A stretch of DNA of 64,000 bases, from assembly GCA_963668695.2 (NCBI GenBank), contig CAXXLQ010000004.1:160001-224000 (forward strand), read 5' to 3'. Shown here in pieces: positions 6,514 to 56,758 of the stretch. Below the pieces are notes generated by a model. It worked only from the letters and a program-made list of their open reading frames with translations. It was not told the DNA's origin and searched no databases. Position 1 is the first letter of the stretch, and every line of letters starts with the position of its first letter. Origin of the DNA: Vicinamibacteria bacterium. Its GTDB lineage: Bacteria > Acidobacteriota > Vicinamibacteria > Marinacidobacterales > Marinacidobacteraceae. The position numbers and the translations under genes were made by a program.

Positions 6514-6693
6514 CGCTCCCCTCCAGGACCAGCCTGCGGGAGCGGGCCCGTCTTGCCTGTCGCCAGTCTCGGAAGCGGCGGCACGAGTTTCGCCCGCCTC
6601 CGGCGGGCGATACCGGTCTGAAGGCCCCCCCCGGGAAAACTGGCGGCGCTCCCAGACTTGCTCATCGCCGGACTCGCTCATCGCCGGACTCGC

Positions 6694-7836
6694 TCATCGG
6701 TAGTAAAGCCAGAGGGGCCCCGGGAAAAGCCACGAAAGGCCCACCCGCAGGCGGTCGCGCCAGTTGTCCCAGTTGTGGCCGTCCGGCGCCTCCACGTAGC
6801 GGACCTCCATGCCGCTCTCGCGGAGAAGCGGCACGAGGGACCGATTCTCGTAGATGAGGGGCTCGTAGATCCCGCAACTGACGAACACGCGACTGCTCAC
6901 CCGGCGCGGATCCACCCGATAGGCGTTCACGAAATCCACCACCGGATCGAGCAGTGCGGTTCGGGTACTCGGCCCCACGTCGGTGAAGGTGAAAGATCCC
7001 GAGGAGAGGAGCAACTTCCCGAAAAAGCCCGGGTACCGATAGGCGGCGGTGAGGGCGGCCACCGCCCCGAGTCCGGCGCCCACCAGCCCGCGGTCATCCG
7101 GGCGGAGCCTGATCGGGAACTCCGTCTGGAGATGGGGGATCAGATCGGAGGTCAGGAACTCGGCGTGGGCGGGGTTGTCCGCAAATTCCCGAATGCGTTT
7201 TTCGGGGGTCACGAAGGCGGCGATCAGCGGAGGGATCTCCCGGCGGTGGATCAGATTGTCAAGGATCGTCCGGAAGGCCGCGTGGCGCAGGTAGTCCTCG
7301 CCGTCGAGCACCACCAGCAGGGGATACCGACGCCGGTTCCGAAAGCCGAACGGGGTGTAGACCGATACCCGCCGGGTTCCGAACACCCGACTCCGCACCT
7401 CCGTAACCGAGAGTTCGCCTTGGCCGACCTGCGGGTCTTCCTCGGCCCATTCGGGCCGCTCGTACCCCTGACCGTGACAGACCGACCAGACACCGAAGGG
7501 GTCGCGCACCGTCCGTTCGTTCAGCGGATCCAGGATCCACTCGGCGTCCGCTCCGAGGACCCGCTGGAACCGATACTCGACACGCGATTCGGCGGGTAGG
7601 TCCAGGGTGAGGAACCAGAGGTCCGAACCCGGAATCCGCTCCATTTCCCGCGCGGCAGCGGTCCCGAAGAGCCAGTGGCCAAGCAGAACGGAGCTGGCCT
7701 CCCCCCGATACGCGAAGGTGGTGTGGGGACCCTCCCGGATGGGGAACTCGTGCCCCTGGATGAACCGGTCCACCGCCTCTCCGGTAGGGCCGGTCAGGAG
7801 GAGTTCCTGGATCGCCAGCTCGGGGGAGCTGTTCAT
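6694..7836 (-). CDS. Enterochelin-esterase-like alpha/beta hydrolase with N-terminal Ig-like domain
   Basis: DPLN, RRVSVYTP, YPLLVVLDG, GHNWDNWR; nucleophile elbow reads GAGLG rather than GxSxG. Confidence 0.8.
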   Translation of the reverse strand: MNSSPELAIQELLLTGPTGEAVDRFIQGHEFPIREGPHTTFAYRGEASSVLLGHWLFGTAAAREMERIPGSDLWFLTLDLPAESRVEYRFQRVLGADAEWILDPLNERTVRDPFGVWSVCHGQGYERPEWAEEDPQVGQGELSVTEVRSRVFGTRRVSVYTPFGFRNRRRYPLLVVLDGEDYLRHAAFRTILDNLIHRREIPPLIAAFVTPEKRIREFADNPAHAEFLTSDLIPHLQTEFPIRLRPDDRGLVGAGLGAVAALTAAYRYPGFFGKLLLSSGSFTFTDVGPSTRTALLDPVVDFVNAYRVDPRRVSSRVFVSCGIYEPLIYENRSLVPLLRESGMEVRYVEAPDGHNWDNWRDRLRVGLSWLFPGPLWLYYR

Positions 7837-8834
7837 GGGGGATCTTCCTCGCCGGCGACTTCCCCGCCAGGGGTTGGGAGAGCGAGTTCCGGCACCGTGT
7901 GTACTTCTCCCTCGCTCGACAGCATCCGGATTCCGGCGGTCGAAGTCCACCGGCAGCCGTCCCAGTGGATGGCGTCTCCGGGGTCCAGCAACACGGCGCG
8001 GTCGGGAGCCACGCGGCCCGACAATTCGGAAAGGCTCTGGCGATCCGCGAGGTCAAGCCGGATTCGAGCATCGGGGAAAAGAGCCACCCCGGGTAGCAGC
8101 GATAGCCCATCACCAAGGATTTCCGGCCGGGCCGAACCGCCCGGAAGCCGGTCATGGAACAGGACGACCCTTGGCGTCAGCACCATCGCTCCGGCGGACC
8201 AGGCCAGAACCGGAAGCCGGGCCAGAGCGTCCGCCACCCCCAGCAACAGCAGCCGGTTCCGAATCACCGCCACGTGTCCCCCGGTCAGCACCACCGCGAC
8301 CGACCGGGAGAGCAGGTGTTCCACCTCCTCCTTTGCCTCCCGGATCGCCGGACGCTCCGCGAGTCGGACCGCTTCCCGGAACTCCTGCCAGAGCGCCGCG
8401 TGGCGCTCGACATGGAACCGATCCGCGGCCAGGATCGCACGCCACGCCTGTTCGGCGTAGGGAGCCCGATACCGTTCGGCGAAGGCAAGTTGGGCTACCT
8501 CGTGGGCGGTCTCCACCGCCCGCCGGAGCCGGACGCCATAGAGCCTCTCCTCCGCAAGAAGGCCCTCCTGCAGCGCCCGATGGGCCTCGGAGAGCGCCGC
8601 ATCCCGCGCGAAGACGCGGCCGACCCGCTCGCCGATGTGCAGCGGTGCGGCCTCGCGTCCGAACTTCTCGAGTTCCCGCCCGACTTCCTTGACGACGGGC
8701 TCCGTCTCCCGCCAGCCCACCGTGATGGTCGCCACCGGACCGGGCGGCAGCTCGAGGGCCTCCAGCCCGGGTCCGAGGCTGATCCGGCCGGGCTGCGGGC
8801 CGAGAACCACCGCGCGGGGGGCGTAGCCGGACAT
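7833..8834 (-). CDS. Class I glutamine amidotransferase / peptidase S51-like protein
   Basis: VLTGGHV and LAWSAGAM motifs; 4-bp overlap with the esterase gene. Confidence 0.6.
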   Translation of the reverse strand: MSGYAPRAVVLGPQPGRISLGPGLEALELPPGPVATITVGWRETEPVVKEVGRELEKFGREAAPLHIGERVGRVFARDAALSEAHRALQEGLLAEERLYGVRLRRAVETAHEVAQLAFAERYRAPYAEQAWRAILAADRFHVERHAALWQEFREAVRLAERPAIREAKEEVEHLLSRSVAVVLTGGHVAVIRNRLLLLGVADALARLPVLAWSAGAMVLTPRVVLFHDRLPGGSARPEILGDGLSLLPGVALFPDARIRLDLADRQSLSELSGRVAPDRAVLLDPGDAIHWDGCRWTSTAGIRMLSSEGEVHTVPELALPTPGGEVAGEEDPP

Positions 8835-8841
8835 GCGCCGA

Positions 8842-9747
8842 TCAGAACCCGAGAACGAGAGCCGCGAGCAGGATCAGATCCGTTCGCCGCCGGGGAATCG
8901 CCACCGTACCGATCGCAGGCCTTCCGGGAGAATCGAACAGGCTGACCCGCTCAAGCGAAGGATGGGAGTCGAAGAGGGTCTGCATGCTCGTGCGAAAAGC
9001 GAGTCGTTTCGAGAGGGGGAACGCTATCGAGCCGGTGAGATCGAGACGGAGGTCATCCGTATTGCGGAGGTTCCAGGTCGAGGCGGAAACGAGCGCCAGC
9101 TCGGCCGCGCGGTAGCGCGTCTCGGCGCGGACCTCCAGCCGCAAACCAAGCGAACCGGCCCCAACTTCCGGGTCGGCCACCTCATCGCGCTGGTGGACCG
9201 CCGAGAGACCCGCTCCCACTTCAACAGGACGCCGTCCTCCGTCGCGTGCCTGGCCCCATTCCTTCCCCACCCCCACGGTGAAGTCGTACCGCGAGTTGAC
9301 CCCGGCGGGGGCGTCGCGCTCCCATCCGGCGGCGGCAAAAAATCTGAGACCCGCCGCGCCGTTCTCCCCGGAGGGTTCCGCGACCCGGAAACGGAGATGG
9401 CTGCGGTCGGCGGAGGTCTGGCTCGTCACCGTCCGGTCCACCGAGAAGTCGTCCGGACTGCCGAAGGCTTGTCTGGTGATGATGTCGGCGCTCGTTCTGA
9501 GCAGCCCTCCCTCAAGCGCCACCCGCAACCGGTCGGTTTCGCGCGCCGTCGTCGCGCTGAGCCCAAGCGACCCCGATCCGGCGTTTCCGTAGGTTCCCGC
9601 GAGGTTCAGGTTCGCCCGCCCGGTCCAGCCGGCCTCTCCCGGAGGAGAGGCTTCCTCGGATTGGGCCCTGGCCAGGGGAGCGGCCACGAAGAGGGCCAGC
9701 GGCAGCAGGAGGGGCCACAATTCGTGACGCCCGGGACGGCTTTGCAT
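8842..9747 (-). CDS. DUF481-like outer-membrane beta-barrel protein
   Basis: signal peptide, WTGRANLNLAGTYGN, amphipathic strands, C-terminal Phe; start uncertain (9747 or 9795). Confidence 0.7.
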   Translation of the reverse strand: MQSRPGRHELWPLLLPLALFVAAPLARAQSEEASPPGEAGWTGRANLNLAGTYGNAGSGSLGLSATTARETDRLRVALEGGLLRTSADIITRQAFGSPDDFSVDRTVTSQTSADRSHLRFRVAEPSGENGAAGLRFFAAAGWERDAPAGVNSRYDFTVGVGKEWGQARDGGRRPVEVGAGLSAVHQRDEVADPEVGAGSLGLRLEVRAETRYRAAELALVSASTWNLRNTDDLRLDLTGSIAFPLSKRLAFRTSMQTLFDSHPSLERVSLFDSPGRPAIGTVAIPRRRTDLILLAALVLGF

Positions 9748-9785
9748 GGGCGCCCGGGAGAATACCCACCGGAGGAACCTGCGAA

Positions 9786-12164
9786 ATGCCGGCACGTACT
9801 GCGATCGGGCGCCGCATCGCTGTCCTGGGGGGCGGATTCCTCGCCGCTTTGTTGCTCATCGCGCTCGCCGCGGGTTTCTACGCCCGCGGCCAACTCCGAG
9901 CGAGCCGGCCTGTCCTGAGCGGGACCGTCACGCTGCCCGGGCTTCTCGCCCCTGCCGAGGTGGAACGGGATGGTTTGGGTATCCCCCGCATCAAGGCGGA
10001 AACGATGCGGGACGGCTACCGGGTGCTCGGGTATCTCCACGCCCAGGAACGGTTCTTCCAGATGGACCTGCAGCGCCGCCAGCCCGCGGGAGAATTGGCG
10101 GCCCTGGCGGGGGCGGCAGCGGCGCCGCTGGATCGGGAGGCGCGCCTTCACCGGATGCGGACGCGTACCGAACGGGCCGCGGAGGCACTGCCGGCCGAAG
10201 CGCGCCGGACCCTCGAGGCGTACCGGGACGGGGTGGCTGCCGGGCTCGCCGGACTGTCGGCGCCGCCGTTTGAATACCTGCTCCTCGGGCAGGAACCGGC
10301 CGCCTGGCGCATCAGCGACTCCCTGCTGACGGTCGTAGCGATGTATTTCGTCCTGAACGACGCGACGGGGGCCCACGAGGCGAGGACCGGGGCGCTCGAG
10401 ACGGCGCTGCCCGCCGAACTCGCGGCGTTCCTGAACCCGCCGGGCACCGACCGGGATGCCCCGCTGGACGGCGAAGCGTTTCCGGTCCCGCGGATTCCAG
10501 GGCCCGCGGCCTTCGCCGCGATCCGCCGGAGCCCTTCCATCGAGCCCGCGGAACCTCCGACGATTTCGGGAAGCAATTCCTGGGCGGTGGCGCCGCAGCG
10601 GGCCGCCGCCGGCACTGCGTTGATGGCGAGCGACATGCATCTGCCCCTGGGAGTACCAAACATCTGGTACCGCGCCGAACTGCACATCGGAGACGCCCGG
10701 CTCCGCGGGCTCACCCTGCCGGGAGTCCCCGCCGTGATCGCCGGAAGCACCGGCGAGGTGGCCTGGGGATTCACGAACTCGCAGGGAGATTGGACCGACC
10801 TCGTCGAACTGGAAATCGATCCATCCGACCCGCTTCGCTATCGCACCCCGGATGGCTGGCGGCGGATGGAGGCATTCGAGGAAGAGATTCAGGTGGCCGG
10901 CGGTCCGCCGGAAACGCTCGAAGTCCATGAAACGATCTGGGGACCGGTCAGCACCGAGTGGGGCCGACCCCTGGCGATCCGCTGGATCGCCCACGATCCG
11001 GAAGGACACCGAACCGGCTATCTGGGGTTCGCGGAGGCATCGAACGTCGAGGAACTCTTCCGCGCGGGCTGGGGCAGCGGGATGCCCCCCCAGAACCTGG
11101 TCGCCGTGGACCGGGAGGGATCGATCGGCTGGACCATCGCCGGACCGATTCCGCGACGGCGCGGATTCGACGGAAGAACCCCGACGTCCTGGGCCGACGG
11201 GGACCGGACCTGGGACGGCTACCTCGAACCGGGGGAGATCCCGGCCATCCGGAATCCGGCTTCCGGGCTCATCTGGACGGCCAACAACCGCATCGTGAGC
11301 GGGGACCTGCTGGATCGGCTCGGGAGGGGCGGAACGTATGCCCACGGCGAACGGGCCCGCCTGATCCGCGACCGGCTCGTCCCACTCGAGGCCGCCGACG
11401 AAGCGGGCCTGCTGGACATCCAGCTCGACGACCGCGCCGAAGAGCTCGCCATTTGGCGCGGGATCTTCCTCCGCTCGCTGGAGGGCGCGAGCGGCCCGCT
11501 GGCAGCCGAAGCCGCTCGAGTGCTGCGGGAGGGATGGACCGGTCGGGCCAGCGTCGACAGCGCCGCCTATCCCCTCGTCCGGAACGCGCGCGTGGAGCTC
11601 TTCCGCGCTGTCTATGGAACCCTCACCGCCCCCGCGGGCGATCTCCTGCCGGGGTTTTCCCCGTGGGTTGCTCTCCACTGGCCGGGGCCGCTGCTGCGGC
11701 TGGCGCAGGAACGGCCGGCGCACTTCGTTCCCCCGGGGGCGGCCGATTGGAACGATGCACTCCGGAGGGCCGTTCTCGCGACCGCCGAACGGATGAGCGC
11801 CGCCGGCCCGCTCGGCGAGCAGACGTGGGGAAAGGAAAACGTGGTCCACGTCCGCCATCCGCTGAGTCCGGGACTCCCTCCGCTGCTCTCCCGATTCCTT
11901 TCCCCGTTCCTGGACGCGGCGCCGCGCGGGCTTCCGGGAGACGCGGGATTGCCACGAGCCCAGAACGGGGCCCACGGCCCCTCCAACCGCTTCGTGGTGG
12001 CGCCGGGACGCGAAGAGACCGGAATCCTCCACATGCCGGGGGGACAGTCCGGTCACCCGGGCATGCCGTACTACCTGTCCGGCCACCGGGACTGGGAGGA
12101 AGGCCGGGCAACGCCCTTCCTGGCCGGGCCCACCGAGTGGACGCTGACTCTGGTCCCGGAGTAA
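9786..12164 (+). CDS. Penicillin acylase / acyl-homoserine-lactone acylase family Ntn hydrolase
   Basis: RDGLGIPRI, HAQERFFQMDL, GSNSWAV, DMHL, WGFTN, TANN, PGGQSG. Confidence 0.95.
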   Translation: MPARTAIGRRIAVLGGGFLAALLLIALAAGFYARGQLRASRPVLSGTVTLPGLLAPAEVERDGLGIPRIKAETMRDGYRVLGYLHAQERFFQMDLQRRQPAGELAALAGAAAAPLDREARLHRMRTRTERAAEALPAEARRTLEAYRDGVAAGLAGLSAPPFEYLLLGQEPAAWRISDSLLTVVAMYFVLNDATGAHEARTGALETALPAELAAFLNPPGTDRDAPLDGEAFPVPRIPGPAAFAAIRRSPSIEPAEPPTISGSNSWAVAPQRAAAGTALMASDMHLPLGVPNIWYRAELHIGDARLRGLTLPGVPAVIAGSTGEVAWGFTNSQGDWTDLVELEIDPSDPLRYRTPDGWRRMEAFEEEIQVAGGPPETLEVHETIWGPVSTEWGRPLAIRWIAHDPEGHRTGYLGFAEASNVEELFRAGWGSGMPPQNLVAVDREGSIGWTIAGPIPRRRGFDGRTPTSWADGDRTWDGYLEPGEIPAIRNPASGLIWTANNRIVSGDLLDRLGRGGTYAHGERARLIRDRLVPLEAADEAGLLDIQLDDRAEELAIWRGIFLRSLEGASGPLAAEAARVLREGWTGRASVDSAAYPLVRNARVELFRAVYGTLTAPAGDLLPGFSPWVALHWPGPLLRLAQERPAHFVPPGAADWNDALRRAVLATAERMSAAGPLGEQTWGKENVVHVRHPLSPGLPPLLSRFLSPFLDAAPRGLPGDAGLPRAQNGAHGPSNRFVVAPGREETGILHMPGGQSGHPGMPYYLSGHRDWEEGRATPFLAGPTEWTLTLVPE

Positions 12165-12198
12165 GCGCCTCCAGGCGAACAACAGCACGTGTCCATAG

Positions 12199-12870: not shown

Positions 12871-12888
12871 TTTTCCGGGCCGCGGCCG

Positions 12889-16300: not shown

Positions 16301-16624
16301 TATCCGAATCGTATCCAATGACAGTCCGCGATACGACTCGGCGGGATTTCCTCCCCTCACCGGGAGCCCTGCCGCTGCCATGCACGCGGGTGACCGAGGC
16401 CGGACCGCCGGACGCGAGCGATGGCCACAACCGCATAGACGGAATTGCGGGCGAAAAATTCCCGCCGCAATCCTCTGTCTTCCCGGTGTCTTCCCGGTGT
16501 CTTCCCGGTTGTCGTCCCGGACTGGGCGGTCTTCTGCGGAAGCGCCATCCGCTTGAGCGGCAGCGCGCGTCTCGCCCGTCTCCGGCGGGCGATGCCGGCC
16601 TGAAGGCCGGCGGTCCCTGGCCGC

Positions 16625-23308: not shown

Positions 23309-23817
23309 CAGCCTGTGGCAAAACCCACGCGGCCCAGTTCTCCCGGTGGGGGCTCGACGGGCGATCCATCCCGTCCAAACAGCCTGTGATGAAACCCACG
23401 CGGCCCAGTTCTCCCGGTGGGGGCTCGGTCGGCGATCCATCCCGGCTGACCGCGTCGCTTCGCGCCGCTCATCGTTGCGTTTCGGTCGGAATACACCCGG
23501 GCCAGTTCTCCCGGTGGGGGCTCCTCCCTCACGCGCCTTGTCAGCCGGGCCCCCACCGGGAGAACTGGCCCCACCGGGAGAACTGGGCCTCACCGGCCTC
23601 GGCGCTCACGTGGGTTCCACCACCGGCTGTTCACCGCCCCGCTTCGCGGGGCTCTGCGTTGCGCTTCGGTCGAAATACACCCGGGCCAGTTCTCCCGGTG
23701 GGGGCTCCTCCCTCGCGCGCCTTGTCAGTCGGGCCCCCACCGGGAGGACTGGCCCCACCGGGAGAACTGGGCCTCGCCCGTCTCGGCGCTCACGTGGGTT
23801 TCACCACAGGCTGCTAG
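23306..23817. mobile_element. Composite MITE-like element, family A
   Basis: ends tagcagcctgtgg...ccacaggctgctag; removal fuses the acnX-large TAG directly to the acnX-small ATG. Confidence 0.85.
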
Positions 23818-24329: not shown

Positions 24330-24738
24330 CTAGGCGACGAAGAGATCGCGCAGCAGCAACAGCAGGATCGCCAGACTGGTCGTCAGCAGCACGTTCACCT
24401 TGACCTCCAGACGGGCGACCCGGTCGCGGAGGTTAACAGCCTGTGGTGAAACCCAGGCGGCGTTCGAGCGGCGATGCATCCCGCCTGAACCGCGCCGCTT
24501 TGCGGCGCTCTGCGTTGCGTTTCGGTCGAAATACACCCGGTATTCCTCCCTCACGCGCCTTGTCAGCCGGGCGCCTCGCCCCCACCGGGAGAACTGGCCG
24601 CTCTCGGCGCTCACCCGGGTTCCACCACAGGCTGTTAAGAACAAAGCCGACTGGTTCTTCCGCCGCGGCCTCTGCCAGTTCCTCCCCAACGCCAGCCTTT
24701 CGGAAGGCCGCGAACATTTGAGAGCGGATGATGGCCAT
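24330..24738 (-). pseudogene. Small membrane-anchored coiled-coil protein (68 aa) disrupted by a MITE
   Basis: removing the insertion at TTAA gives MAIIRSQMFAAFRKAGVGEELAEAAAEEPVGFVLNLRDRVARLEVKVNVLLTTSLAILLLLLRDLFVA*. Confidence 0.8.
24433..24638. mobile_element. MITE-like element, family A
   Basis: ttaacagcctgtgg...ccacaggctgttaa with duplicated target. Confidence 0.9.
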
Positions 24739-29074: not shown

Positions 29075-29770
29075 TTAACAGCCTGTGGTGGAACCCGGGT
29101 GAGCGCCGAGAGCAGCGAGGCGCCCGCCTGACAAGGCGCGTGAGGGAGGAATACCGCGTGTATTCCGACCGAAACGCAACGATGAGCGGCGCGAAGCGAC
29201 GCGGTTCAGGCGGGATGGATCGCCGCTCGAACGCCGCCTGGGTTTCGCCACAGGCTGTTAACAGCCGGTGGTGGAACCCACGTGAGCGCCGAGCCCGGTG
29301 AGGCCCAGTTCTCCCGGTGGGGCCAGTCCTCCCGGTGGGGGCCCGGCTGACAAGGCGCGTGAGGGAGGAATACCGCGTGTATTCCGACCGCAACGATGAG
29401 CGGCGCGAAGCGACGCGGTGAACAGCCGGTGGTGGAACCCGCGTGAGCGCCGAGGCCGGCGAGGCCCAGTTCTCCCGGTGGGGCCAGTTCTCCCGGTGGG
29501 GGCCCGGCTGACAAGGCGCGTGAGGAAGGAATACCGGGTGTATTTCGACCGAAACGCAACGATGAGCGGCGCGCAGCGACGCGGTCAGCCGGGATGGATC
29601 GCCGGCCGAGCCCCCACCGGGAGAACTGGGCCGCGCGGGTTTCATCACAGACTGTTTGGCCGGGATGGATCGCTGGCCAAACGCCGCGTGGGTTCCACCA
29701 CAGGCTGTTCGGCCGGGATGGATCGCCGGTCGAACGCCGCGTGGGTTTGCCACAGGCTGTTAACAGCCGG
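29075..29770. mobile_element. Tandem/composite MITE-like elements, family A
   Basis: TTAA junctions at 29075, 29258 and 29760 with repeated terminal inverted repeats. Confidence 0.85.
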
Positions 29771-29840
29771 GAACGGCCCCGCCTGAGTTTCGCTCCCCGG
29801 CGGGGAGCGATGCCGGTCGGAGGCCGGCGCTCCTGGGGTC

Positions 29841-30210
29841 CGAGCCGCTCGTAAGCCGAATTCTGTTCCCTGGCGCGGTTGCCCGCGGCGGGGTGACGGT
29901 CATGCATCTAGCCCGGCGGTTACCCGACGGGTCAAGCGACCTACCCGGAAGCTCGGACAGGCGGCCCTCGGGTGCTTCCCTATTTGGTCTTGCTCCATGC
30001 GGGGTTTACCGTGCCCTGGACATCGCTGCCCAGGCGGTGCGCTCTTACCGCACCTTTTCACCCTTACCGCTCCCCGGAGGGAGAGGCGGTTTGTTTTCTG
30101 TGGCACTTTCCTTCCGGTCACCCGGACTGGGGGTTACCCAGCGCACTGCCTTGCGGAGTTCGGACTTTCCTCCCGCTCCCGAGGGAGCCGGCGACCGTCT
30201 GAACGACTCG
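29841..30210 (-). ncRNA. rnpB: RNase P RNA (bacterial type A)
   Basis: GAGGAAAGTCC, GAAAGTGCCACAGAAA, GGTAAACCCC, AACAGAATTCGGCTTAC; P1 pairing cgagtcgttc/gagcggctcg. Confidence 0.97.
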
Positions 30211-31621: not shown

Positions 31622-31808
31622 CTAGCAACCTGTGGTGAAACCCAGGCGGCGTTCGAGCGGCGATGCATCCCACCTGAACCGCGCCGCGTTGCGGCGCTCT
31701 GCGTTGCGTTTCGGTCGAAATACACCCGGTATTCCTCCCTCACGCGCCTTGTCAGCCGGGCGCCTCCCCGCTCTCGGCGCTCACCCGGGTTCCACCACCG
31801 GCTGCTAG
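31622..31808. mobile_element. MITE-like element, family A
   Basis: ctagcaacctgtgg...ccaccggctgctag. Confidence 0.88.
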
Positions 31809-32256: not shown

Positions 32257-32644
32257 CCAGCAGCCGGTGATGGAACCCCCGTGGCGTTCGGCCGGCGATC
32301 CATCCCGGCCAAACAGCCGGTAGTGGAACCCACGGGGCGTTCGGCCGGCGATCCATCCCGGCTGAACCGCGTCGCTTCGCGCCGCTCATCGTTGCCTTTC
32401 GGTCGAAATACACTCGGTATTCCTCCCTCACGCGCCTTGTCAGCCGGACCCCCACCGGGAGAACTGGGCCTCGCCGACCTCGGCGCTCCCGCGGGTTCCA
32501 CCACCGGCTGTTCACCGCGTCGCTTCGCGTCGCTCATCGTTGCGTTTCGGTCGAAATAAACACGGTATTCCTCCCTCACGCGCCTTGTCAGCCGGGCGCC
32601 TCACCGACCTCGGCGCTCACGCGGGTTCCACCACCGGCCGCTAC
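32257..32644. mobile_element. Composite MITE-like element, family A
   Basis: cagcagccggtgatgg...ccaccggccgctac. Confidence 0.82.
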
Positions 32645-32647
32645 CGC

Positions 32648-36616: not shown

Positions 36617-37233
36617 CAGCCTGTGGCAAAACCCACGCGGCCCAGTTCTCCCGGTGGGGCTCGACGGGCGATCCATCCCGCCCAAACAACCGGTGATGAA
36701 ACCCACGCGGCCCAGTTCTCCCGGTGGGGGCTCGGCCGGCGATCCATCCCGGCTGAACCGCCTGTAGTGAAACCCGCGCGGCCCAGTTCTCCCGGTGGGG
36801 GCTCGGCCGGCGATCCATCCCGGCTGAACAACCGGTGATGAAACCCACGCGGCCCAGTTCTCCCGGTGGGGGCTCGGCCGGCGATCCATCCCGGCTGAAC
36901 CGCGTCGCTTTCGCGCCGCTCATCGTTGCGCTTCGGTCGGAATACACTCGGGCCAGTTCTCCCGGTGGGGGCTCCTCCCTCACGCGCCTTGTCAGCCGGG
37001 CGCCTCGCCCCCACCGGGAGAACTGGCCAGCCTCGGCGCTCACCCGGGTTCCACCACCGGCTGTTCACCGCGTCGCTTCGCGCCGCTCATCGTTGCGTTT
37101 CGGTCGAAATACACCTGGGCCAGTTCTCCCGGTGGGGGCTCCTCCCTCGCGCGCCTTGTCAGCCGGGCCCCCACCCCCACCGGGAGAACTGGCCGGCCTC
37201 GGCGCTCACGTGGGTTTCACCACAAGCTGTTAA
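36613..37233. mobile_element. Composite MITE-like element, family A, with internal ~70-bp tandem sub-units
   Basis: ctaacagcctgtgg...ccacaagctgttaa; begins at the fur TAA stop. Confidence 0.87.
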
Positions 37234-38628: not shown

Positions 38629-38749
38629 CTGACAATCTGTGGATGGAGCGACGTGAGCGCAGCGAGCGGCCAGTCCTCCCGGTGGGGGGCAGTTCAGCAG
38701 GGATGCATCGCCGCTCGGACGCCGCGTGACTTTGTCCACAGGCTGCTAG
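38629..38749. mobile_element. Short (internally deleted) MITE-like element, family A
   Basis: ctgacaatctgtgg...ccacaggctgctag. Confidence 0.75.
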
Positions 38750-43576: not shown

Positions 43577-44466
43577 GACCCGGCCGGTAAGAACAGTCTG
43601 AATCCCGAACTGGCCAGCACCGAAGGCGGAAGGACCAGCGCCGCAGACGGAAGGACCAGCGCTGCAGACGGAAGGAACTGCCGGCGTCGAACCGGAAGGT
43701 TCGGCGCCCGCCTGACGGGGGGGAAAGTGTGAAAGGGGAAACTCCCCCTTTCACAAAAAGACAGCTCCGAAGTCGGAACTCGCCGCCCATGCCGCCATCT
43801 TGAGATCACGTCGTGGACCGGCCTGGTGACAGGGCGGGAGTTCCGACTTCAGGCGCGAAGCGCCGAGCGGCTTCCGGGCGGGGTCCTTTCAGCCTGACAC
43901 AGGGATCAGCCGGACCGCGAGTACGGGCTGACCCTTTCTGGGAACCCAGCAGCCGGTGGACAAAGTCGCGCGGCGTTCAAGCGGCGATGCATCCCGGCTG
44001 AGACGCCCCGCTTCGCGCGGCTCATCGTTGCGCTTCGGTCGAAATACACCCGGTATTCCTCCCTCGCGCGCCTTGTCAGCCGGGCGCCTCGCCCCCACCG
44101 GGAGAACTGGCCGCTCTCGGCGCTCACGCCACTTTGCCCACCGGCCGCTAGACCCGGCCGGTAAGAACAGTCTGAATCCCGGACTGGCCAGCGCTGCAGA
44201 CGGAAGGAACTGCCGGCGTCGAACCGGAAGGTTCGGCGCCCGCCTGACCGGGGGGAAAGTGTGAAAGGGGGAACTCCCCCTTTCACAAAAAGACAGCTCC
44301 GAAGTCGGAACTCGCCGCCCATGCCGCCGTCTTGAGATCACGTCGTGGACCGGCCTGGTGACAGGGCGGGAGTTCCGACTTCAGGCGCGAAGCGCCGAGC
44401 GGCTTCCGGGCGGGGTCCTTTCAGCCTGACACAGGGATCAGCCGGACCGCGAGTACGGGCTGACCC
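43577..44466. repeat. Direct duplication of a multi-hairpin element (358 bp and 316 bp) separated by a MITE
   Basis: 43577-43934 nearly identical to 44151-44466; the 42-bp difference is two extra 21-bp units. Confidence 0.92.
43946..44151. mobile_element. MITE-like element, family A
   Basis: ccagcagccggtgg...ccaccggccgctag. Confidence 0.82.
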
Positions 44467-50057: not shown

Positions 50058-50103
50058 TTCCGGCGTCCCGGCGCCGCCGGCCGGGGGTTGGTGTGTTCAC
50101 GGG

Positions 50104-50318
50104 TCAACAGCCCGTGGAAAAAGCACCCCGCACTGTGCCGAGGACGAAAGGCGAACCGAATCTGGGTTTTGCGCGCGTGCGGGGCGCTTTCCCCCCGGGG
50201 TGAGGGCGCGATTCGCGCCCTCGTCTTTCGCGAGGAGGGGAAACCCCTCCCCGCACCCCTCCCCCGCGGCGCTCCGCGCCGCGAATGGACAGCGGCAGAT
50301 TTCCCCACCGGCCGTTGA
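50104..50318. mobile_element. MITE-like element, family B
   Basis: tcaacagcccgtggaaaaag...tttccccaccggccgttga. Confidence 0.78.
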
Positions 50319-50355
50319 TATCGCAAATGTCTTTGAAATGTAATATTTTGTTCAT

Positions 50356-51719: not shown

Positions 51720-51980
51720 AGGCGGTGATGCTATCCCCGATTGCGCACGCCGACCGACCGCGAACCACGACGAAGGGTCCCGTAACGTCTTGCCCGTAAC
51801 CTCTTGACGGTACGCGGGCTATTCGTGAGCCTGGGACCCTCGCTTTCTTGACGGCGCCGAGGCACGGGAACGCCGGCCCGTCCTCCCGGTGGGTGCCTTC
51901 AGACCGGCGCCGCTCGGCGACCGCGCAGCGAAACCGCACGATTCCCGGCACCCGGATGGCCCGACCGTGAATAACCGTTC

Positions 51981-53492
51981 ATGACCACTAAACGACGCCT
52001 TCCGATGGGGCTCTTCGCGGCGGTGGACCTCGGTTCCCGCAGCTTCCACCTCACCGTCGCCCGGGTCCACGGCGAGAACATCGAAGTGGTGGACCGGGTG
52101 AAGGAGCCGGTGCGGCTCGCCGCCGGCATCCGGAACAAGGCCGTCGAACCCGCGACGTGGGGGCGCGCCGCAGCCGCGCTCGCCCGAATCGGGGAACGCA
52201 TCCGGGATATCCCGGCCGGCCAGGCGCGCGCGGTGGGTACCAACGCCTTCCGGCAGGTGAAGGACCAGAAGGCATTGCTCGGCGATGCGACGAAGGCTCT
52301 CGGGCATCGGGTGGAGATCATCTCCGGCGTGGAGGAAGCGCGGCTCATCTATGTGGGAGTCAACACCCTCCTTCCGGAGGAGAACGGCCGCCGGCTGGTG
52401 CTGGATATCGGGGGCGGCAGCACCGAATTGGTCGTTGGACAGGGGGAGGAGCCGCTCCGGGCGGCAAGCCTCTATATGGGGTGTGTTTCCTTCACGCGCC
52501 GCTTCTTCCCGGGCGGCGTGATCACCGAGCCGGCCTTCGTCGCCGCCGAGACCGAGGCCCGCCGCGAACTCGAGACCGTGGAGGAAGGATTTCTGGCGCT
52601 CGGATGGTCCCGGGTGTTCGGATCTTCCGGCACGGTGCTGGCCACCGCCGAGCTTCTGCGTGCAAACGGCGGCCTGACCCGGGCGGCGCTGGCGGGGCTC
52701 AGAGACCGGATGATCCGCGGCGCCCACGTCGAAGCCCTCGCCCGCGGACCCGATGCGATTCCGGGGTTTCCCGCCGATCGGGCATTGGATTTCCCCGGCG
52801 GCATCGCGGTCCTGCGCGCGGCCATGGAGACCTTCGACATCGAAAGGATCGAGCCGGCCGAGGGAGCGCTCCGCGAGGGGGTGCTCTTCGACCTGATCGG
52901 CCGGCGCCGGAGACAGGATGTCCGGGAGAGCACGATCCGCAACCTCATGACCCAGTACCGGGTGGACCGCGAACAGGCGGAGCGGGTCAAGGCCACCGCG
53001 CTGGTCGGCCTGAGACAGCTAAAGCGGCCGTGGGGCCTCGAACACGAGGCGCACGAACGGTTTCTGCGCTGGGCGGCCGAGCTGCATGAGGTCGGCCTCT
53101 CCGTCTCCTTCAGCGGCCATCACCACCACGGCGCCTACATCGTGCGCAACACGGACATGCCGGGCTTTTCGCGGGACGACCAGGAACTGCTCGCCGCGCT
53201 GATCGAGACCCACCGGCAGAGGCTGCCGCCCGGGCGCTTCGAGAAATTGACTGCCGCCGATCCCGTCACCAGCGGCCGACTGGCCGCCATCCTGCGGATC
53301 GCGGTCCTGCTCTGCCGGCGCCGCAGTCGCGAGCGCCTGCCCCTTATTGAGGCCAGCGCGCCCGACGGTCAGCTTGAGCTCGCGTTCCCCCCGGGCTGGC
53401 TCGACCACCACCCCCTGACTCGCGCCGGCATCGCGGAGGAGGCGGAGCAACTCGCGGCCATCGGAATCGAACTCCGCGTCCGGGATCGCTGA
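51981..53492 (+). CDS. ppx: Exopolyphosphatase Ppx/GppA
   Basis: AAVDLGS, ISGVEEARLIY, DIGGGSTE, GALREG, HD-like LHEVG. Confidence 0.94.
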   Translation: MTTKRRLPMGLFAAVDLGSRSFHLTVARVHGENIEVVDRVKEPVRLAAGIRNKAVEPATWGRAAAALARIGERIRDIPAGQARAVGTNAFRQVKDQKALLGDATKALGHRVEIISGVEEARLIYVGVNTLLPEENGRRLVLDIGGGSTELVVGQGEEPLRAASLYMGCVSFTRRFFPGGVITEPAFVAAETEARRELETVEEGFLALGWSRVFGSSGTVLATAELLRANGGLTRAALAGLRDRMIRGAHVEALARGPDAIPGFPADRALDFPGGIAVLRAAMETFDIERIEPAEGALREGVLFDLIGRRRRQDVRESTIRNLMTQYRVDREQAERVKATALVGLRQLKRPWGLEHEAHERFLRWAAELHEVGLSVSFSGHHHHGAYIVRNTDMPGFSRDDQELLAALIETHRQRLPPGRFEKLTAADPVTSGRLAAILRIAVLLCRRRSRERLPLIEASAPDGQLELAFPPGWLDHHPLTRAGIAEEAEQLAAIGIELRVRDR

Positions 53493-53524
53493 AGGGGCGG
53501 CGCCGGCCGCCGCCGGAAAGTCGC

Positions 53525-54153
53525 TCAGTCGGTGACGAAGCTGAAGATCTGGTAGCGGCCGCCCTGCCGAGCATCGAGCCGAAGATCCGCAGGGTTCCGC
53601 GTTCGCCGTCCGGGGCGCGGACGGTGAGCACCGCCTCTCGGTGGACCTGGAAGGGTCCGTAGTCGGTGCTCTCTCCCACGAAGTCCACCGCAACCAGTTC
53701 GAAGCTGCGTCCCTGGTAGCGGTCCATCGTGGAGGCCAACGAGTTCCGGCTGCGCTGATGCAGCATCTCCCAGAGAAACTCGGCCGACGTGTTCCGTTCG
53801 GGGCGACTCGCCGGCAGCCGGAGGTACACCGCTTCGCGGAACTCGACTTCGCTGATGGCCAGCCTCGAAAGGGAGTCGGTGTCCCCCGCTTTGATCAGCG
53901 CCAGCGCCGCGCGCGCCGCTTCTTCGGGCGAATCGAAGAGCACTCGACCCACGGGCAGGGTGACGAGATCAGCTGCCCCGGCCGCCTTCCCCGCTTTGTC
54001 CGGAGATTCGTTGGGAGATTCCTTGGGAGATTCCTTGCCGGGCGGGGGATTCGCGCCTCGGCACCCGGTACCGAAGATGGCGACCGCCGCGAAGACGGCA
54101 GCGAAGCCTGATAGAGAGGGGCCGCAGCGGAAGCGGCGCGGCCCCATTTCCAT
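53525..54153 (-). pseudogene. Hypothetical lipoprotein with a probable 1-bp frameshift near the C-terminus
   Basis: lipobox-like FGTGC; adding one base near 53570 gives ...IFGSMLRQGGRYQIFSFVTD* and removes a long overlap with ppx. Confidence 0.6.
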
Positions 54154-54164
54154 TCGTCCGGGAA

Positions 54165-54790
54165 TCAGTTCCGGGCGAAGGTGGTCCAGCCGAGGAATCA
54201 GTCGTCGTCCAGGCCGCAGGCGCCCGCGTAGGTGACCGGATCGAAGAATCCGTCGGCCGGCGGCAGAGCGTCCGGGCCAAGCAGCGCGAGCAGGAGCGCC
54301 GGGGAACCTGCCATCGGCCGGCAGTCGAGCGCCTCGTGGTTGTAGGGATCGGCGAGCATGGGATCCAGCTCCCGGAGTTGCTGGGAGGCCATTGCGAAGT
54401 CCCGGGTGGAGAAGGTCGGCGCCGGGTCCTCGCCGGAGTCGTCGTCGAAGCTGCCCTCGAGGTTGCCGTAGAAGATCGAGTTCTTCACCACCAAAAACCC
54501 ATCCTCGGCGAGCCGGTAGGTGGCGGCGTTGTCGATGTCGAGTCCGGTCTCCTTGAAGCCGAGCACGATGGAATTGGCGATCTCGGCGGAGGTGCCCTCG
54601 CGGAGCAGGATGCCAATGTCGCTCTCGTCGCCCTGGTCGGTATCCGGGTCGCCGATCAGGGTGAGGTTGTAGAGCGTCGGATCGGAGCGCGGGGTGAGGT
54701 CGTTGTTCTCACCGTTGTTGTCCGCCTCGATCCCCTGATCGGCGTCGTCGCCGCGCTGCTGAGCGATCCAGAACTGGCCGCGCGGACGAA
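54165..54790 (-). pseudogene. C-terminal fragment of an acidic Asn/Asp-rich secreted (beta-helix-like) protein
   Basis: GQFWIAQQRGDDADQGIEADNN...NLTLIG...LREGT; no N-terminus or signal peptide; in-frame TGA at 54198 followed by FLGWTTFARN*. Confidence 0.6.
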
Positions 54791-54928
54791 ACGGATCAGA
54801 AAGTTGAGACGGGAATGACCGCCCCGAGGGCAAAAGTGCGGCTCAGGCATCGAGGGCGGATTGTGGTTGTCCCTTGTTGCCTAGCCGTGAAGCGTGCGAA
54901 AACTCACCGCCAAATCCTGCGCAGCGCG

Positions 54929-54956
54929 ATGAACCCGGTTTGAACCGCGTGTGAAC
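54929..54956 (-). promoter_or_regulatory. Putative Pho box (three GTTCA repeats, 11-bp period)
   Basis: GTTCAC-acgcg-GTTCAA-accgg-GTTCAT on the - strand. Confidence 0.6.
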
Positions 54957-55093
54957 GCCGGTCCCGAGGGAGGTCTCGTGACGCCGGGGCGATCCCCGCG
55001 GAAACGGCGCGGGGGCTCCGGCCCCTTCCGCTACCGAGCTAGCGCACCACCCGCTACCCGGCAGCCGCCGCCCGGCCCCGAATCGAGGGAGGG

Positions 55094-56374
55094 TCAGTTG
55101 CGCCGGGGGTTCTGGAAGTCGAAGAGCCACTGGAAGAGAAGCAGTAGCTCGTGGTCGCCGGTGGCGCCGAACCGCCAACGGTAGTCGGCGGAAAGATGGG
55201 TCCTGTTCCACGGGAGTTCGTATCGAGCTCCGGCGATCACGTAGCTGGAGTGCCCCGGGTTGGCCAGCGGGCCATGGTTCGTTTCCGTCCCGAGCTCCGC
55301 GGCGGCCCAGATGCCCTGGGGAAGACGATGGCGGAGCCGGGCGAAACCGCCAAGGTGTTCCCTGCCGTGCTGCTCCCGGCGGAAGGCGGCGCCGCGAAAC
55401 ACCTGGCCGGAGCCGAGCACACCATCCACATGGACCCCCGTCTGCCGCCGCGGCACGAGGGCGTCGTCCGGTCCGTCGCGGCCTTCATAGTGGCCGGCGT
55501 CCACCAACCAGGAGCTCCCGGCAACGTCGAACGTGCGGCCCACGCTCGCCAGCACGTCCTTCGACGAGTTGTTCTCTGCCTCATTTCCACTGCCCTGCAC
55601 CACATGAAGCCGGGCGTTATAAGGACCCTGGTCAGCGAAAAGGAAGACTCCCACCTCCCTCGACCGGGTCAGGCTGGAGCCGACCGCGGCGTACACCATC
55701 TGGCGGGAATGTGACGACTCGGTGAACTCTCCGAGCCAGGCAAGCGAACTGCGCCCTGCGCGTACCTGGAGCCCTCCGCCGACGTCGAACTGCACCCAGA
55801 AGTCATGCATGCGGGTCTTGCCCAGGTCGTAGGTGATGTTCGTGACGATGCGGTCCCCGATCTTGGTCTTGCTCCAGATCGAAAAACTGCTGATCTCCGC
55901 GTCGCCGAGTTCCTGGAACTCATCCAGGACCCGGCCGCGAAACCGCACGTTGAAATCCACGAGCGACGCCGCTCCGGCGCTGCCCTGGGCGGCCACGTCC
56001 GAATCCGATTCCCCGTTCGCTGCCTCTTCCGCGGCGAGGGCCTTCTCGTCGTCGGCGAGTTGAATCTCGCGCGTACGCGGTTCCGGTTCGATCGCTGCGG
56101 ACTCGCCGGCGGCCACCGCAGCCTCGGACGAACTTCTTCCGGTCGCCGGTTGCCTGGCCGCTTCCTGGATTTCCGTCTCGGGGGTTTCCGTCTCGGGGGT
56201 TTCGGTCTCGGGCAGAACTGCGCCCGCACCCGCGAACACGCTCCCGGCCACCGCCCAGAGCGTCAGCGACAAAGAGACCGAAGGGAAAAACGACCGACGC
56301 CGGAAGATTGGGAAGGCGGGTGAAGCGGAGCCGTCGGAGCGGCCGCGCTCGAACCGCGTAGGTGCCCCCAACAT
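55094..56374 (-). CDS. Outer-membrane porin, possibly phosphate-selective (OprO/OprP-like)
   Basis: signal peptide, low-complexity linker, beta-strand pattern; Pho-box-like repeats upstream; family call weak. Confidence 0.55.
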   Translation of the reverse strand: MLGAPTRFERGRSDGSASPAFPIFRRRSFFPSVSLSLTLWAVAGSVFAGAGAVLPETETPETETPETEIQEAARQPATGRSSSEAAVAAGESAAIEPEPRTREIQLADDEKALAAEEAANGESDSDVAAQGSAGAASLVDFNVRFRGRVLDEFQELGDAEISSFSIWSKTKIGDRIVTNITYDLGKTRMHDFWVQFDVGGGLQVRAGRSSLAWLGEFTESSHSRQMVYAAVGSSLTRSREVGVFLFADQGPYNARLHVVQGSGNEAENNSSKDVLASVGRTFDVAGSSWLVDAGHYEGRDGPDDALVPRRQTGVHVDGVLGSGQVFRGAAFRREQHGREHLGGFARLRHRLPQGIWAAAELGTETNHGPLANPGHSSYVIAGARYELPWNRTHLSADYRWRFGATGDHELLLLFQWLFDFQNPRRN

Positions 56375-56398
56375 GAGGCGCCATGTTGTTTCTCCGGC

Positions 56399-56479
56399 AT
56401 GACGGGTCCTTGAACCATTCGTGAAACAAGGTTTAAGATCGAGTGAATATTCAGGGACTCAAAATGAATTCAATGTGAA
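56399..56479 (-). promoter_or_regulatory. Putative multi-unit Pho box
   Basis: TTCAC/TTAAA/TTCAC/TTCAA/GTCAT at 11-bp period (56443, 56432, 56421, 56410, 56399) plus a pair at 56475/56464. Confidence 0.6.
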
Positions 56480-56535
56480 CGCAGATTTGCGCAACGTTAC
56501 GGCTTCGAAAATCCGCGTGCCCGCGACCCCGAGCG

Positions 56536-56758
56536 TTAACAGCCTGTGGACAGAGTGGCGTGAGCGCCGAGAGCGGCGAGGCGCCCGGCTGACAAGGCGC
56601 GCGAGGGAGGAGCCCCCACCGGGAGAACTGGCCCGGGTGTATTTCGACCGAAGCGCAACGATGAGCGACGCGAAGCGGCGCGGTTCAGCCGGGATGCATC
56701 GCCGCTCGAGCCCCCACCGGGAGAACTGGGCCGCGTGATTTTGTCTACAGGCTGTTAA
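56536..56758. mobile_element. MITE-like element, family A
   Basis: ttaacagcctgtgg...ctacaggctgttaa; its TTAA end coincides with the pheA stop. Confidence 0.88.

Follow-up and report, generated by a model that had tools for sequence, protein, structure and literature searches.

The window, a stretch of 64,000 nt from a Vicinamibacteria bacterium, contains copies of a MITE, REP-like hairpins and, within both, a short unit with an 18-nt core, CCAGTTCTCCCGGTGGGG (Table 1). With its collar of 1-3 nt, in which G or C at the left and GC at the right are usual in the studied genome, the conserved block extends over 20-21 nt. The sequence is not palindromic, and unit plus collar fold at -1.9 kcal/mol (z 0.63), 150 of 200 shuffles folding as well or better. 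Neither strand contains a stop triplet, and the length corresponds to six codons. A second allele, T6C, is common to several species. The window contains the exact 18-mer 24 times, where 100 shuffles predict 0.00, and 29 copies are found at up to three mismatches against 0.21 expected. These figures bear out the original prediction, which had counted about 30 copies, none of them in genes; the codon-periodicity test flags none within the window. The filled and empty sites that it had paired are as described: empty cgcggc/gttcg near 24458 with filled cgcggc/unit/gctcg at 36854, empty acacccgg/tattcc near 24533 with filled acacccggg/unit/gctcc at 23502, and an empty site at 31761 with the reverse-oriented unit at 24580-24597. 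Both exact dimers exist, the minus-strand one shifted by one position from where it had been placed, as do the diverged units within the REP-like palindrome and its empty copies, the first near 5135. The minus-strand dimer at 23551..23586 and the S1 copy 49 nt upstream pair into a long stem (-39.3 kcal/mol, z -5.9).

Table 1. Copies of the unit and of its host repeats in the window (S1-S5, sites of the host MITE)
Feature	Position	Strand	Remark
Unit at MITE site S2, aacccacgcggc/unit/gctcg	23334..23351	+	second S2 copy at 23405-23422
Unit at MITE site S1, aatacacccggg/unit/gctcctccc	23502..23519	+	further S1 copy at 23686-23703
S3 dimer, two exact units head to tail	23551..23586	-	forms a long stem with S1 copy 49 nt upstream
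S3 dimer, main unit and T6C variant (CCAGTCCTCCCGGTGGGG)	23735..23770	-	
Host MITE copy, nearly empty (TTAACAG...CTGTTAA)	24433..24638	+	S2, S5, S1 and S3 empty, S4 filled
Unit at MITE site S4	24580..24597	-	net +19 versus empty copies such as 31761
S3 dimer, main unit and T6C variant	29305..29340	+	reverse-oriented MITE array adjoining RNase P RNA gene
Exact dimer at S3	29466..29501	+	
Unit at S2	29612..29629	-	reverse-oriented MITE module
Single S3 unit	32450..32467	-	coupled flank GT (ccggac on + strand)
Four S2 units (36642, 36712, 36783, 36854)	36642..36871	+	70-71-nt tandem half-MITE modules
Two adjacent MITE right halves	36953..37192	.	S1 at 36953 (+) and 37120 (+); S4 or S3 at 37009 (-) and 37175 (-)
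T6C variant unit at S5-like site, gcgagcgg/unit/ggcagttcag	38670..38687	+	
Unit at S4	44093..44110	-	
One reverse-oriented MITE	56614..56729	-	S1 (56614-56631) and S2 (56712-56729) both filled
Diverged unit (2 mismatches) within REP-like hairpin	6626..6643	-	orthologous REP empty in relative G008
Diverged unit (3 mismatches) within REP-like hairpin	51877..51894	+	
Empty REP-like hairpin, gccggtcttcagaccggc	5124..5160	-	fold -8.1 kcal/mol
More empty REP-like hairpins	near 16589 and 63286		

The whole assembly holds 1288 exact copies, equally on both strands, and 1631 at up to two mismatches. Parts of contig C4 are repeated in C1, in C3 and in the tail of C4 itself at ~97.6-99.7% identity; without this redundancy, the de-duplicated chromosome retains 1201 exact copies. 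When word length was set by extending each high-copy 12-mer for as long as 80% of its copies were in agreement, the 20-mer formed by the 18-mer and GC was the commonest word of the genome (1474 seeds), 2.7 times any carrier segment, the best segment of the host MITE reaching 542 seeds. The unit has this rank because it is pasted into other repeats. Its 1480 arrays comprise 1336 single units, 140 dimers and four arrays of 3-5 units; 1336 single arrays and more than 160 different flank classes (165, including 102 singletons) do not describe a minisatellite or VNTR. Clustering is heavy, with up to 15 copies per cluster, and inverted pairs are frequent, the +- orientation at 49 nt spacing being seen 148 times. 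Along the chromosome the unit is evenly spread, and no replichore strand bias was detected (386 versus 381, 315 versus 304). Split or partial units are scarce (22 prefix-only and 94 suffix-only versus 1201 whole). The possibility, raised earlier, of an IS-end fragment does not apply: conservation stops at 20 nt, and split units are rare.

The host MITE inserts at TA, and at least five sites of this one MITE (S1-S5) are occupied by the unit, in both orientations. Comparison of filled and empty copies shows TAT replaced by G-unit-GC at S1, GT by unit-GC at S2, a clean gain of 18 or 36 nt at S3 and a gain of 19 nt at S4 and in REP hairpins. These filled-empty comparisons reveal no target-site duplication; instead, 1-4 bases are overwritten, and duplication models of GG, GGC or GGCC fail on S1, S2 and S3. 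Overwritten bases and the absence of duplication are not those of a MITE, as defined by TIR and TSD. The junction rule is uneven, with a net gain of 18 or 19 nt and 0-4 bases changed, and the sites are G/C-rich with the consensus SG/GC. When empty, the S1 and REP sites each form a small, perfect hairpin, which the unit disrupts. A mobile insert targeted to hairpins had been proposed; the discrete insert in unrelated contexts stands, but general targeting of hairpin loops is not supported, since flank pairing beside the unit in 163 site classes gave 27 stems of at least 4, versus 40.8 +/- 4.9 in shuffled pairs.

Several REP-like hairpins host the unit. REP-hosted copies number 61, of which 20 are exact, and carry 0.075 mismatches per nt. 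At the 51877-51894 locus, the orthologous copy is exact in G004, has three mismatches in G000 and about five in G008. Old copies decay, and the REP-hosted and orthologous copies do so like neutral DNA. The boundaries of the unit are also kept in a fourth carrier family, and a 230-nt repeat of narrower spread (7/41 genomes) ends in a variant unit. A lone IS110 copy sits in a REP hairpin and not in the unit.

All 12 combinations of S1, S3 and S4 states are present among 519 MITE halves, in which S3 and S4, only 7 nt apart, are unlinked (p = 0.48). Parsimony requires 123 changes at S1 (shuffled 148 +/- 6), 122 at S3 (131 +/- 5) and 62 at S4 (120 +/- 4) on a tree of 445 masked halves; built on ~150 nt of very similar sequence, this tree has poor resolution and overstates how many changes took place. 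State combinations and tree changes disagree with a single ancestral presence followed by deletions, the refuting case named in the original prediction. Genome-wide, 70 of 73 single S3 units have the flank GT, which is GC in 270 empty copies. Haplotype pairs that otherwise match over more than 200 nt are distinguished solely by the unit and a fixed flank change (S3 GC versus unit+GT at two loci, S1 TAT versus G-unit-GC in two MITEs). The unit hitch-hikes in carriers that show conversion-like polymorphism. Scrambled states, together with units that differ with fixed, coupled flanks in otherwise identical haplotypes, suggest short-patch gene conversion: these polymorphisms look like conversion between carrier copies rather than fresh insertion, and the sequences point to gene conversion as the better explanation for much of the variation within the MITE.

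Insertions in protein genes were found in three families. In an RND transporter gene, exactly 18 nt are added in frame in 2 of 30 orthologues, those of G000 and of its relative G001 (96% identical); the other 28, that of G008 (93% identical) among them, are empty. Among 15 mfd orthologues, one contains an exact unit and another a decayed 12-nt remnant, in frame; the site is the same in two species while closer relatives of both are empty, a pattern that calls for a hot spot or for interspecies exchange. The unit is also present in 1 of 14 coaBC orthologues (+18 nt, in frame). The three insertions are in three different reading frames or orientations, none has a target duplication, 1-4 flanking bases are overwritten and junction micro-homology amounts to just 0-3 nt. 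A discrete block has thus entered unique DNA de novo, and the lack of stop triplets and the length of six codons allow such rare genic insertions to survive in frame. Genome-wide, the codon-periodicity test picked out 2 of 1386 arrays, neither of them in the window; one was spurious, which leaves 1 of 1386 in unique coding DNA of the studied genome. De novo events that can be demonstrated are therefore few in number, covering three genes in four genomes and about a dozen carrier sites. Genic inserts bear the collar that is typical for carrier copies within their own clade. Of the 12 exact copies of G010 and G012, 5 have A at the left and 6 have GG at the right, both genic insertions of these genomes being among those that do, versus 2/163 and 10/163 classes in G000.

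The exact unit is present in 21 of 41 relatives, restricted to five genera of one Vicinamibacteria family, across which RND orthologues are ~76% identical. Within one genus, complete or near-complete genomes hold 6 to 631 exact copies, and copy number tracks MITE abundance. Of the 80 loci listed from public assemblies, 77 belong to acidobacterial MAG records and 3 are single matches elsewhere. Short-read assemblies break at the unit. An adapter or assembly artefact was among the doubts attached to the original prediction, and the partial redundancy, noted above, of this noisy long-read assembly would agree with it. Nevertheless, many assemblies made independently by different submitters contain the word, in sites of the same kinds. 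Short-read contigs from three studies, covering three DNA-type runs, stack on repeat bins at depths far above adjoining unique bins, and the unit is read in frame within intact genes of two genomes. Considering also its presence in the relatives, the probability of an artefact is negligible.

The unit is best explained as a very small, non-coding, non-autonomous insertion module, propagated by entry, multiplication of carriers and shuffling by conversion; a probability of roughly 0.55 is assigned to this reading. It enters DNA as one block in either orientation, without target-site duplication, overwriting 1-4 junction bases for a net gain of 18, sometimes 19, nt. Its own 3' junction recreates the SG/GC target, and the exact tandem arrays would follow from this. 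After entry into the TA-inserting MITE and the REP-like hairpins, these carriers would have multiplied its numbers, and short-patch gene conversion would have shuffled its states among their copies. For the inserting step, the most likely route is that a unit already present is copied at the DNA level, collar included, while a break or stall is being handled by repair or replication. Among apparently mobile DNA units seen in bacteria, this one ranks with the smallest.

Other explanations differ in what moves the unit, if anything does. In the genome, which is 91.7% complete, reverse transcriptase, Y1/RAYT (PF01797, Y1_Tnp; control genomes positive) and DUF559 each gave 0 matches and TnpB gave none over the cut-off, so that the RT or RAYT partner gene envisaged in the original prediction found no counterpart there. 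A dedicated, unrecognised activity that would paste a ~20-nt block without duplication, overwrite a few bases and define a class shared with SDRs is a tentative possibility. Alternatively, the unit would have no mobility of its own and be a segment of MITEs and REPs, whose variation reflects subfamilies, deletions and gene conversion among hundreds of paralogues, its genic copies being accidents of host replication or repair, through template switching or ectopic conversion with micro-homology from a carrier copy. The fixed alleles swapped between otherwise identical haplotypes at S3 and S1, the GT flank of single S3 units, the same-clade collars of genic inserts, the enzyme search and the link with MITE abundance all speak for this explanation. 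Random template switches should, however, give patches of variable length, whereas the same boundaries of 18-22 nt recur in MITE sites, several REP families, three genes and the fourth carrier family. Partial units are rare, genic micro-homology is minimal, the unit outnumbers every carrier segment and it occupies many sites of one MITE in both orientations. An immobile unit is judged rather unlikely.

A protein-binding or uptake-type signal under selection had been put forward as well. Extended to molecular drive, this explanation would make the unit a functional motif, either the binding site of a DNA-binding protein or a DNA-uptake signal favouring recombination of unit-bearing alleles. Exact conservation of the core in half of the relatives and across five genera would fit such a constraint, as would the commonest word of the genome being evenly spread, the T6C allele shared by species in the manner of a dialect, and the frequent inverted pairs. 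USS and DUS motifs under drive are built up where they stand through point changes, not through the insertion of blocks into genes as seen here. The copy range within one genus, the heavy clustering, the decay of REP-hosted and orthologous copies, the disruption of the hairpins entered and the absence of replichore strand bias also argue against this explanation, which is improbable; range and decay tell against a DNA uptake sequence in particular.

The insertion of DNA units too small for the usual recombination sites has been an open question since the Nostoc SDRs of 2008, beside which this lineage constitutes a second, independent and richer system. It offers more than 1000 copies, several complete genomes per genus with widely different copy numbers, filled and empty alleles within one population and three dated insertions in conserved genes, which together make the insertion spectrum, the rate and co-varying genes directly measurable. 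If a dedicated activity moves it, the unit would represent a minimal kind of mobile DNA to which cyanobacterial SDRs would in principle belong too, and its six-codon design, open in six frames, would let it spread even through essential genes. In practical terms, it breaks short-read assemblies, adds six residues to proteins and gives carrier repeats long perfect stems.

BIMEs of E. coli, SNRs of Deinococcus and nested MITEs are modular carriers whose internal pieces vary. The host MITE is similarly modular, but a single module explains its variation and also occurs outside carriers. DUS of Neisseriaceae and USS of Pasteurellaceae exceed 1000 copies, occur in both orientations and as inverted pairs and have lineage-specific variants. 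The unit shares these traits, unlike them having a hundred-fold copy range in a genus, clustering in carriers, decaying and originating by block insertion. REP and REPIN sequences moved by RAYT Y1/HUH enzymes (PMC3116915) are also short, very abundant and intergenic, with inverted pairs that form hairpins; in contrast, the unit is not a palindrome, the genome gives no match to Y1_Tnp (PF01797), single units insert alone and the true REP-like hairpins are its hosts. Rickettsia palindromic elements, of ~150 bp, palindromic and encoding a conserved peptide, are likewise selfish repeat DNA surviving in frame within unrelated housekeeping genes (MITE review, PMC10969869), whereas the unit is 18 nt read in three different frames. 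The terms 'small dispersed' and 'nested' are absent from that 2024 review of prokaryotic MITEs.

The view of the original prediction that the unit fits no nameable class is incorrect: a published precedent, and the closest one, is provided by small dispersed repeats (SDRs) in Nostocaceae. SDR1-8, from Nostoc punctiforme and other members of that family, were reportedly described by Elhai and colleagues in 2008 as possibly the smallest mobile elements, of unknown mechanism, with units said to measure 21-27 nt and SDR4-6 said to share a predicted hairpin with compensatory changes. Compared by description only, the unit comes from an unrelated phylum, would be unrelated in sequence, is shorter at 18-21 nt, lacks a hairpin of its own such as that of SDR4-6 (z 0.63) and overwrites flank bases; in-frame gene copies with empty orthologues are documented for it. 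SDR5 was found inserted between the third and fourth bases of HIP1 (PMC4390886), and SDRs are limited to one coherent lineage (PMC5861425). The literature examined on SDRs, including passages of PMC3116915 and PMC2884548, which also treat those of Nostoc, gives no insertion mechanism. In size and dispersal (~20-27 nt for SDRs), the 18-nt core in a 20-nt block with its 1201 exact copies is comparable, and empty orthologous sites in genes provide the filled and empty states. Like SDRs, the unit is tens of bases long and highly repeated, is inserted precisely at short sites, is confined to one coherent lineage and nests inside MITEs (S1-S5), other repeats (REP hairpins) and itself, in arrays of up to five units.

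The unit CCAGTTCTCCCGGTGGGG, an 18-mer that is not palindromic, is present in 24 exact copies in the window, compared with none in 100 dinucleotide-preserving shuffles, and in 29 copies at ≤3 mismatches where 0.21 are expected. The original prediction's pairs of filled and empty sites (with and without the unit), dimers and REP-like examples are all present as described, two coordinates being off by one. Genome-wide, 1288 exact copies and 1631 at ≤2 mismatches were counted, equally distributed over both strands. The assembly (four contigs) is redundant, as contigs C1 and C3 and the tail of C4 duplicate parts of C4, and most counts were therefore confined to C4:1-3,783,324, with 1201 exact copies and 1386 arrays. 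The redundant stretches differ structurally at repeat clusters and are probably co-assembled strain haplotypes, consistent with the contamination figure of 9.3%. Over all contigs, 1480 arrays were found (1336 single units, 140 dimers and four arrays of 3-5 units), forming 594 clusters of which the largest holds 15 units. Since the unit positions are fixed within the carriers, some spacings are favored: inverted copies tend to lie 49 or 56 nt apart, and direct copies 71, 98 or 25 nt. The window itself has a G+C content of 63-72% and contains one gene each for RNase P RNA and a tRNA. Gene calls were crude codon-periodicity calls, and the relatives of this genome were read in separate pieces, not as whole sequences.

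The unit is a discrete block. Information content falls steeply on either side of the 18-mer, apart from two preceding and two following bases, referred to here as the collar. When each of 163 distinct flank contexts (flank classes) is weighted once, position -2 is G in 127 and position -1 is G in 118 and C in 42, while +1 is G in 133 and +2 is C in 130. In a word census where every high-copy 12-mer was extended as long as 80% of copies agree, the unit extended to the 20-mer CCAGTTCTCCCGGTGGGGGC with 1474 seeds versus 542 for the top carrier segment, making it the genome's most frequent word, ahead of its hosts in number. Partial and split units are scarce (22 and 94 versus 1201 whole). The unit plus its collar does not fold by itself (-1.9 kcal/mol, z 0.63); read from the sequence, the unit makes six codons with no stop triplet on either strand. 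Its principal variant, T6C (156 copies), is found in 21 of the 163 classes, being common in REP-like hairpins and at site S4 of the MITE and almost missing at S1 and S2, and is frequent in other species.

Altogether 165 flank classes were distinguished, 102 of them singletons. The large classes correspond to fixed positions in one MITE, and the remaining ones to several types of REP-like hairpins, e.g. gccgg/unit/gccttcagaccggc. Filled and empty versions of these sites were aligned and no target-site duplication was found at the junctions; duplication models of GG, GGC or GGCC suit S4 and some REP copies and fail at S1, S2 and S3. The empty S1 is a perfect tip hairpin (aatac-acccg-gtatt) and the empty REP a 7-bp hairpin (-8.1 kcal/mol). 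Because the unit disrupts both, the filled state is taken to be derived from an original, empty one. The possibility that the unit is itself the target of a larger element was eliminated, with zero split units found. In one stretch of the window, the MITE left half with its S2 unit stands in four head-to-tail repeats of period 70-71 nt, and the 71-nt spacing occurs 109 times genome-wide. Next to the RNase P RNA gene lies a MITE array in reverse orientation, with five positions for the unit, and the depth of the array's bin is by far the highest in contigs of an RNA library, a run that may contain DNA.

Unit sites of the MITE and of the main REP type, filled and empty
Site	Flanks	Copies	Filled	Empty	Difference
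S1	aatacacccggg/unit/gctcctccc	303	ccggG[unit]GCt (~270 copies)	ccggTATt (~260)	21 nt in place of 3
S2	aacccacgcggc/unit/gctcggcc	287	gcggc[unit]gCtcgg	gcggcgTtcgg	+18, one base altered
S3	gaggc/unit/gcccggctgaca	about 225, often dimers	gaggc[unit, once or twice]gcccgg	gaggcgcccgg	clean +18 or +36
S4	cgccgagagcgg/unit/gcgaggc	about 190			net +19
S5	cgccgcaaagcg/unit/gggcggttcag	51			
Main REP type					net +19

The most direct evidence for insertion comes from conserved genes. An intact RND (AcrB-like) transporter gene contains an exact unit in frame, read as PHRENW. Among 30 orthologues from 30 genomes, the insert is present in two, the genome under study and its closest relative (96% identical in the region); the other 28, including relatives at 93% (G008) and 91% (G004), are empty and exactly 18 nt shorter. 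The junction reads gagcccg/CG/cgggatg when empty and gagcccg/GC+unit'/cgggatg when filled. In mfd, one relative (G012, locus L175) has an exact unit, translated as PPPGEL, and another (G010, locus L179) a 12-nt decayed remnant at the same site. The site is empty in the other 13 of 15 orthologues, one of them 95% identical, and closer relatives are among the empty ones. A site filled in two species with closer relatives empty reflects a hot spot or else interspecies exchange. In coaBC of G010, ACC AGT TCT CCC GGT GGG GGG stands in place of a GAC codon; the remaining 13 of 14 orthologues lack the insert. In the coaBC of the genome under study, ~160 nt of Pro/Thr-rich repeats (TPPP...) have been added to the linker that joins its halves, and the expansion in its closest relative is about 100 nt.

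The three genic inserts differ in frame and orientation, and one to four junction bases are altered each time. G010 and G012 have an A...GG(C) collar, in genes and carrier copies alike: the left A is present in five of their 12 exact copies and the right GG in six, versus two and 10 of the 163 classes in the genome under study. This clade-specific collar suggests that the genic block came in as though a resident copy had been its template. The original prediction noticed no unit in genes; this holds for the window, whose copies are outside genes. Genome-wide, one of the 1386 arrays lies in a real gene. A second genic candidate proved to be the end of a MITE past a stop codon.

Inside the carriers, the state of the sites varies among copies. 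Among 519 right halves of the MITE, all 12 combinations of S1 (0/1), S3 (0/1/2) and S4 (0/1) were found. S3 and S4, which are 7 nt apart, show no association (p = 0.48); between S1 and S3 there is a positive one (chi-square 28.6). On a tree of 445 halves built with units and neighboring bases masked, S1, S3 and S4 change 123, 122 and 62 times, compared with 148 ± 6, 131 ± 5 and 120 ± 4 for shuffled labels; the pattern is far from a single gain, and the tree, being poorly resolved, constitutes weak evidence. The redundant contigs behave like strain haplotypes and provide at least five unit indels in ~270 kb aligned. Haplotype pairs that match exactly for over 200 nt differ solely by the unit and a fixed flank change, i.e. 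GC versus unit+GT at S3 at two loci and TAT versus G-unit-GC at S1 of two adjacent MITEs. Genome-wide, the S3 flank is GT in 70 of 73 single units and GC at 270 empty and 115 dimer sites. Rather than new insertions, these haplotype differences look like alleles handed from one carrier copy to another by short-patch conversion.

The exact unit is present in 21 of 41 related genomes, the reversed control pattern being absent from all. It was found in 15 of 15 genomes of the same genus (6 to 631 exact copies, the low counts including two complete or nearly complete genomes), in five of nine genomes of the family's other genera, these five falling in four genera (1 to 220 copies), and in none of 16 genomes of the order's two other families. 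The unpublished genome G033 is one of the 20 without it, and a conserved master gene was ruled out as the source, given these 20 relatives. A scan of one genome per species returned at least 112 stretches with the unit; 77 of the 80 matches listed come from acidobacterial MAG records, under the titles Candidatus Marinacidobacterium, Vicinamibacteria or Acidobacteria, and the other three are single matches outside those records. Low-copy genomes have the unit mainly in REP-like hairpins. The 61 REP-hosted copies of the genome under study (20 exact, 0.075 mismatches per nt) are its older ones. At one intergenic REP shared by orthology, G004 has an exact unit, the genome under study one with three mismatches and G008 one with about five; another such REP is empty in G008 and filled in the genome under study.

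Coordinates of features in the window and in the genome under study
Feature	Position	Remarks
Redundant contig C1	C4:304-421 kb	reverse; identity ~97.6-99.7%
Redundant contig C3	C4:3505-3538 kb	identity ~97.6-99.7%
C4 tail, C4:3783325-3913787	C4:13.6-148 kb	identity ~97.6-99.7%
Unit in RND gene	C4:394435-394452	minus strand
Rejected genic candidate	C4:2092014	
coaBC linker	C4:2099060-2099223	outside window
IS110-family element	C4:482100-483950	outside window
230-nt repeat, one copy	C4:716750-716899	
MITE left-half repeats	window 36621-36900	
Reverse MITE array	window 29200-29790	
RNase P RNA gene	window 29837-30210	312 bits

Several sources and movers were examined. A non-coding repeat family of ~230 nt (18 copies; loci L222-L233) opens with a REP hairpin, includes a terminator-like stem with TTTTT after it, and closes with the variant unit ...GGGTTTCTCCCGGTGGGG/GC. 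It has no match in Rfam and, being limited to seven of 41 relatives, all in the same genus, is not the source of the unit. As for a source RNA, Rfam gives RNase P alone in the window. The single IS110-family element (DEDD transposase, 97 bits) sits in the loop of a REP-like hairpin with two unit-bearing REPs just upstream, and is unrelated to the unit. A phage vector was discarded, with one match among 2.9 million viral contigs. Nor is the unit an adapter or assembly artefact: among the runs listed, 20 of 24 (nine studies) contain the test stretch or part of it, and three DNA-type runs, one from each of three studies, have contigs that span the unique genes nearly or entirely without differences and stack up on repeat bins. 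As these Logan contigs end at repeats, they are silent on alleles and transcription.

The unit is thus a discrete block inserted in either orientation, with no duplication and few bases overwritten, at G/C-rich SG/GC sites; it inserts next to itself, hitch-hikes on MITE and REP carriers, is converted among carrier copies and decays neutrally. Our best guess is that a resident copy would act as a DNA template, from which the block, collar bases included, would be copied into a break or stalled fork. The start and stop of copying may be set by the unit's own ends, and the 18-nt net gain in genes could be what selection tolerates. Insertion might be carried out by a dedicated enzyme, to which we give a probability of about 0.3. 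In this genome, 91.7% complete, no reverse transcriptase, no Y1/RAYT, no TnpB domain match above cut-off and no DUF559 were found, the last being present in one of 15 genomes of the genus. The main rival, in which the host repair machinery performs the insertion, is about equally likely.

The targeting of hairpins proposed by the original prediction does not hold as a rule: RND, mfd, coaBC and S2 sites individually resemble loops of small GC hairpins, and stems of ≥4 are found in 27 of 163 classes versus 40.8 ± 4.9 for shuffled flank pairs. That the unit is a functional motif, such as the uptake or protein-binding signal under selection also proposed, is improbable. Copies show no strand bias relative to ori/ter (386 versus 381 and 315 versus 304 by replichore), which rules out a polar motif, and REP-hosted copies decay.

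The 18-mer and the genus name have no occurrence in the literature searched. The unit had been said to fit no class that could be named; the nearest published kind is nevertheless the small dispersed repeats (SDRs) of Nostocaceae. In these reports, SDRs are tiny units nested in MITEs, heptamer repeats and HIP1, considered mobile by an unexplained mechanism and described only from Nostocaceae (PMC5861425, PMC4390886, PMC3116915, PMC2884548). Rickettsia palindromic elements likewise survive in frame in genes, although they are described as far larger than the unit (PMC10969869). Compared with SDRs, the acidobacterial unit comes from an unrelated phylum, is smaller, lacks a hairpin and adds direct evidence from filled and empty sites in conserved genes.
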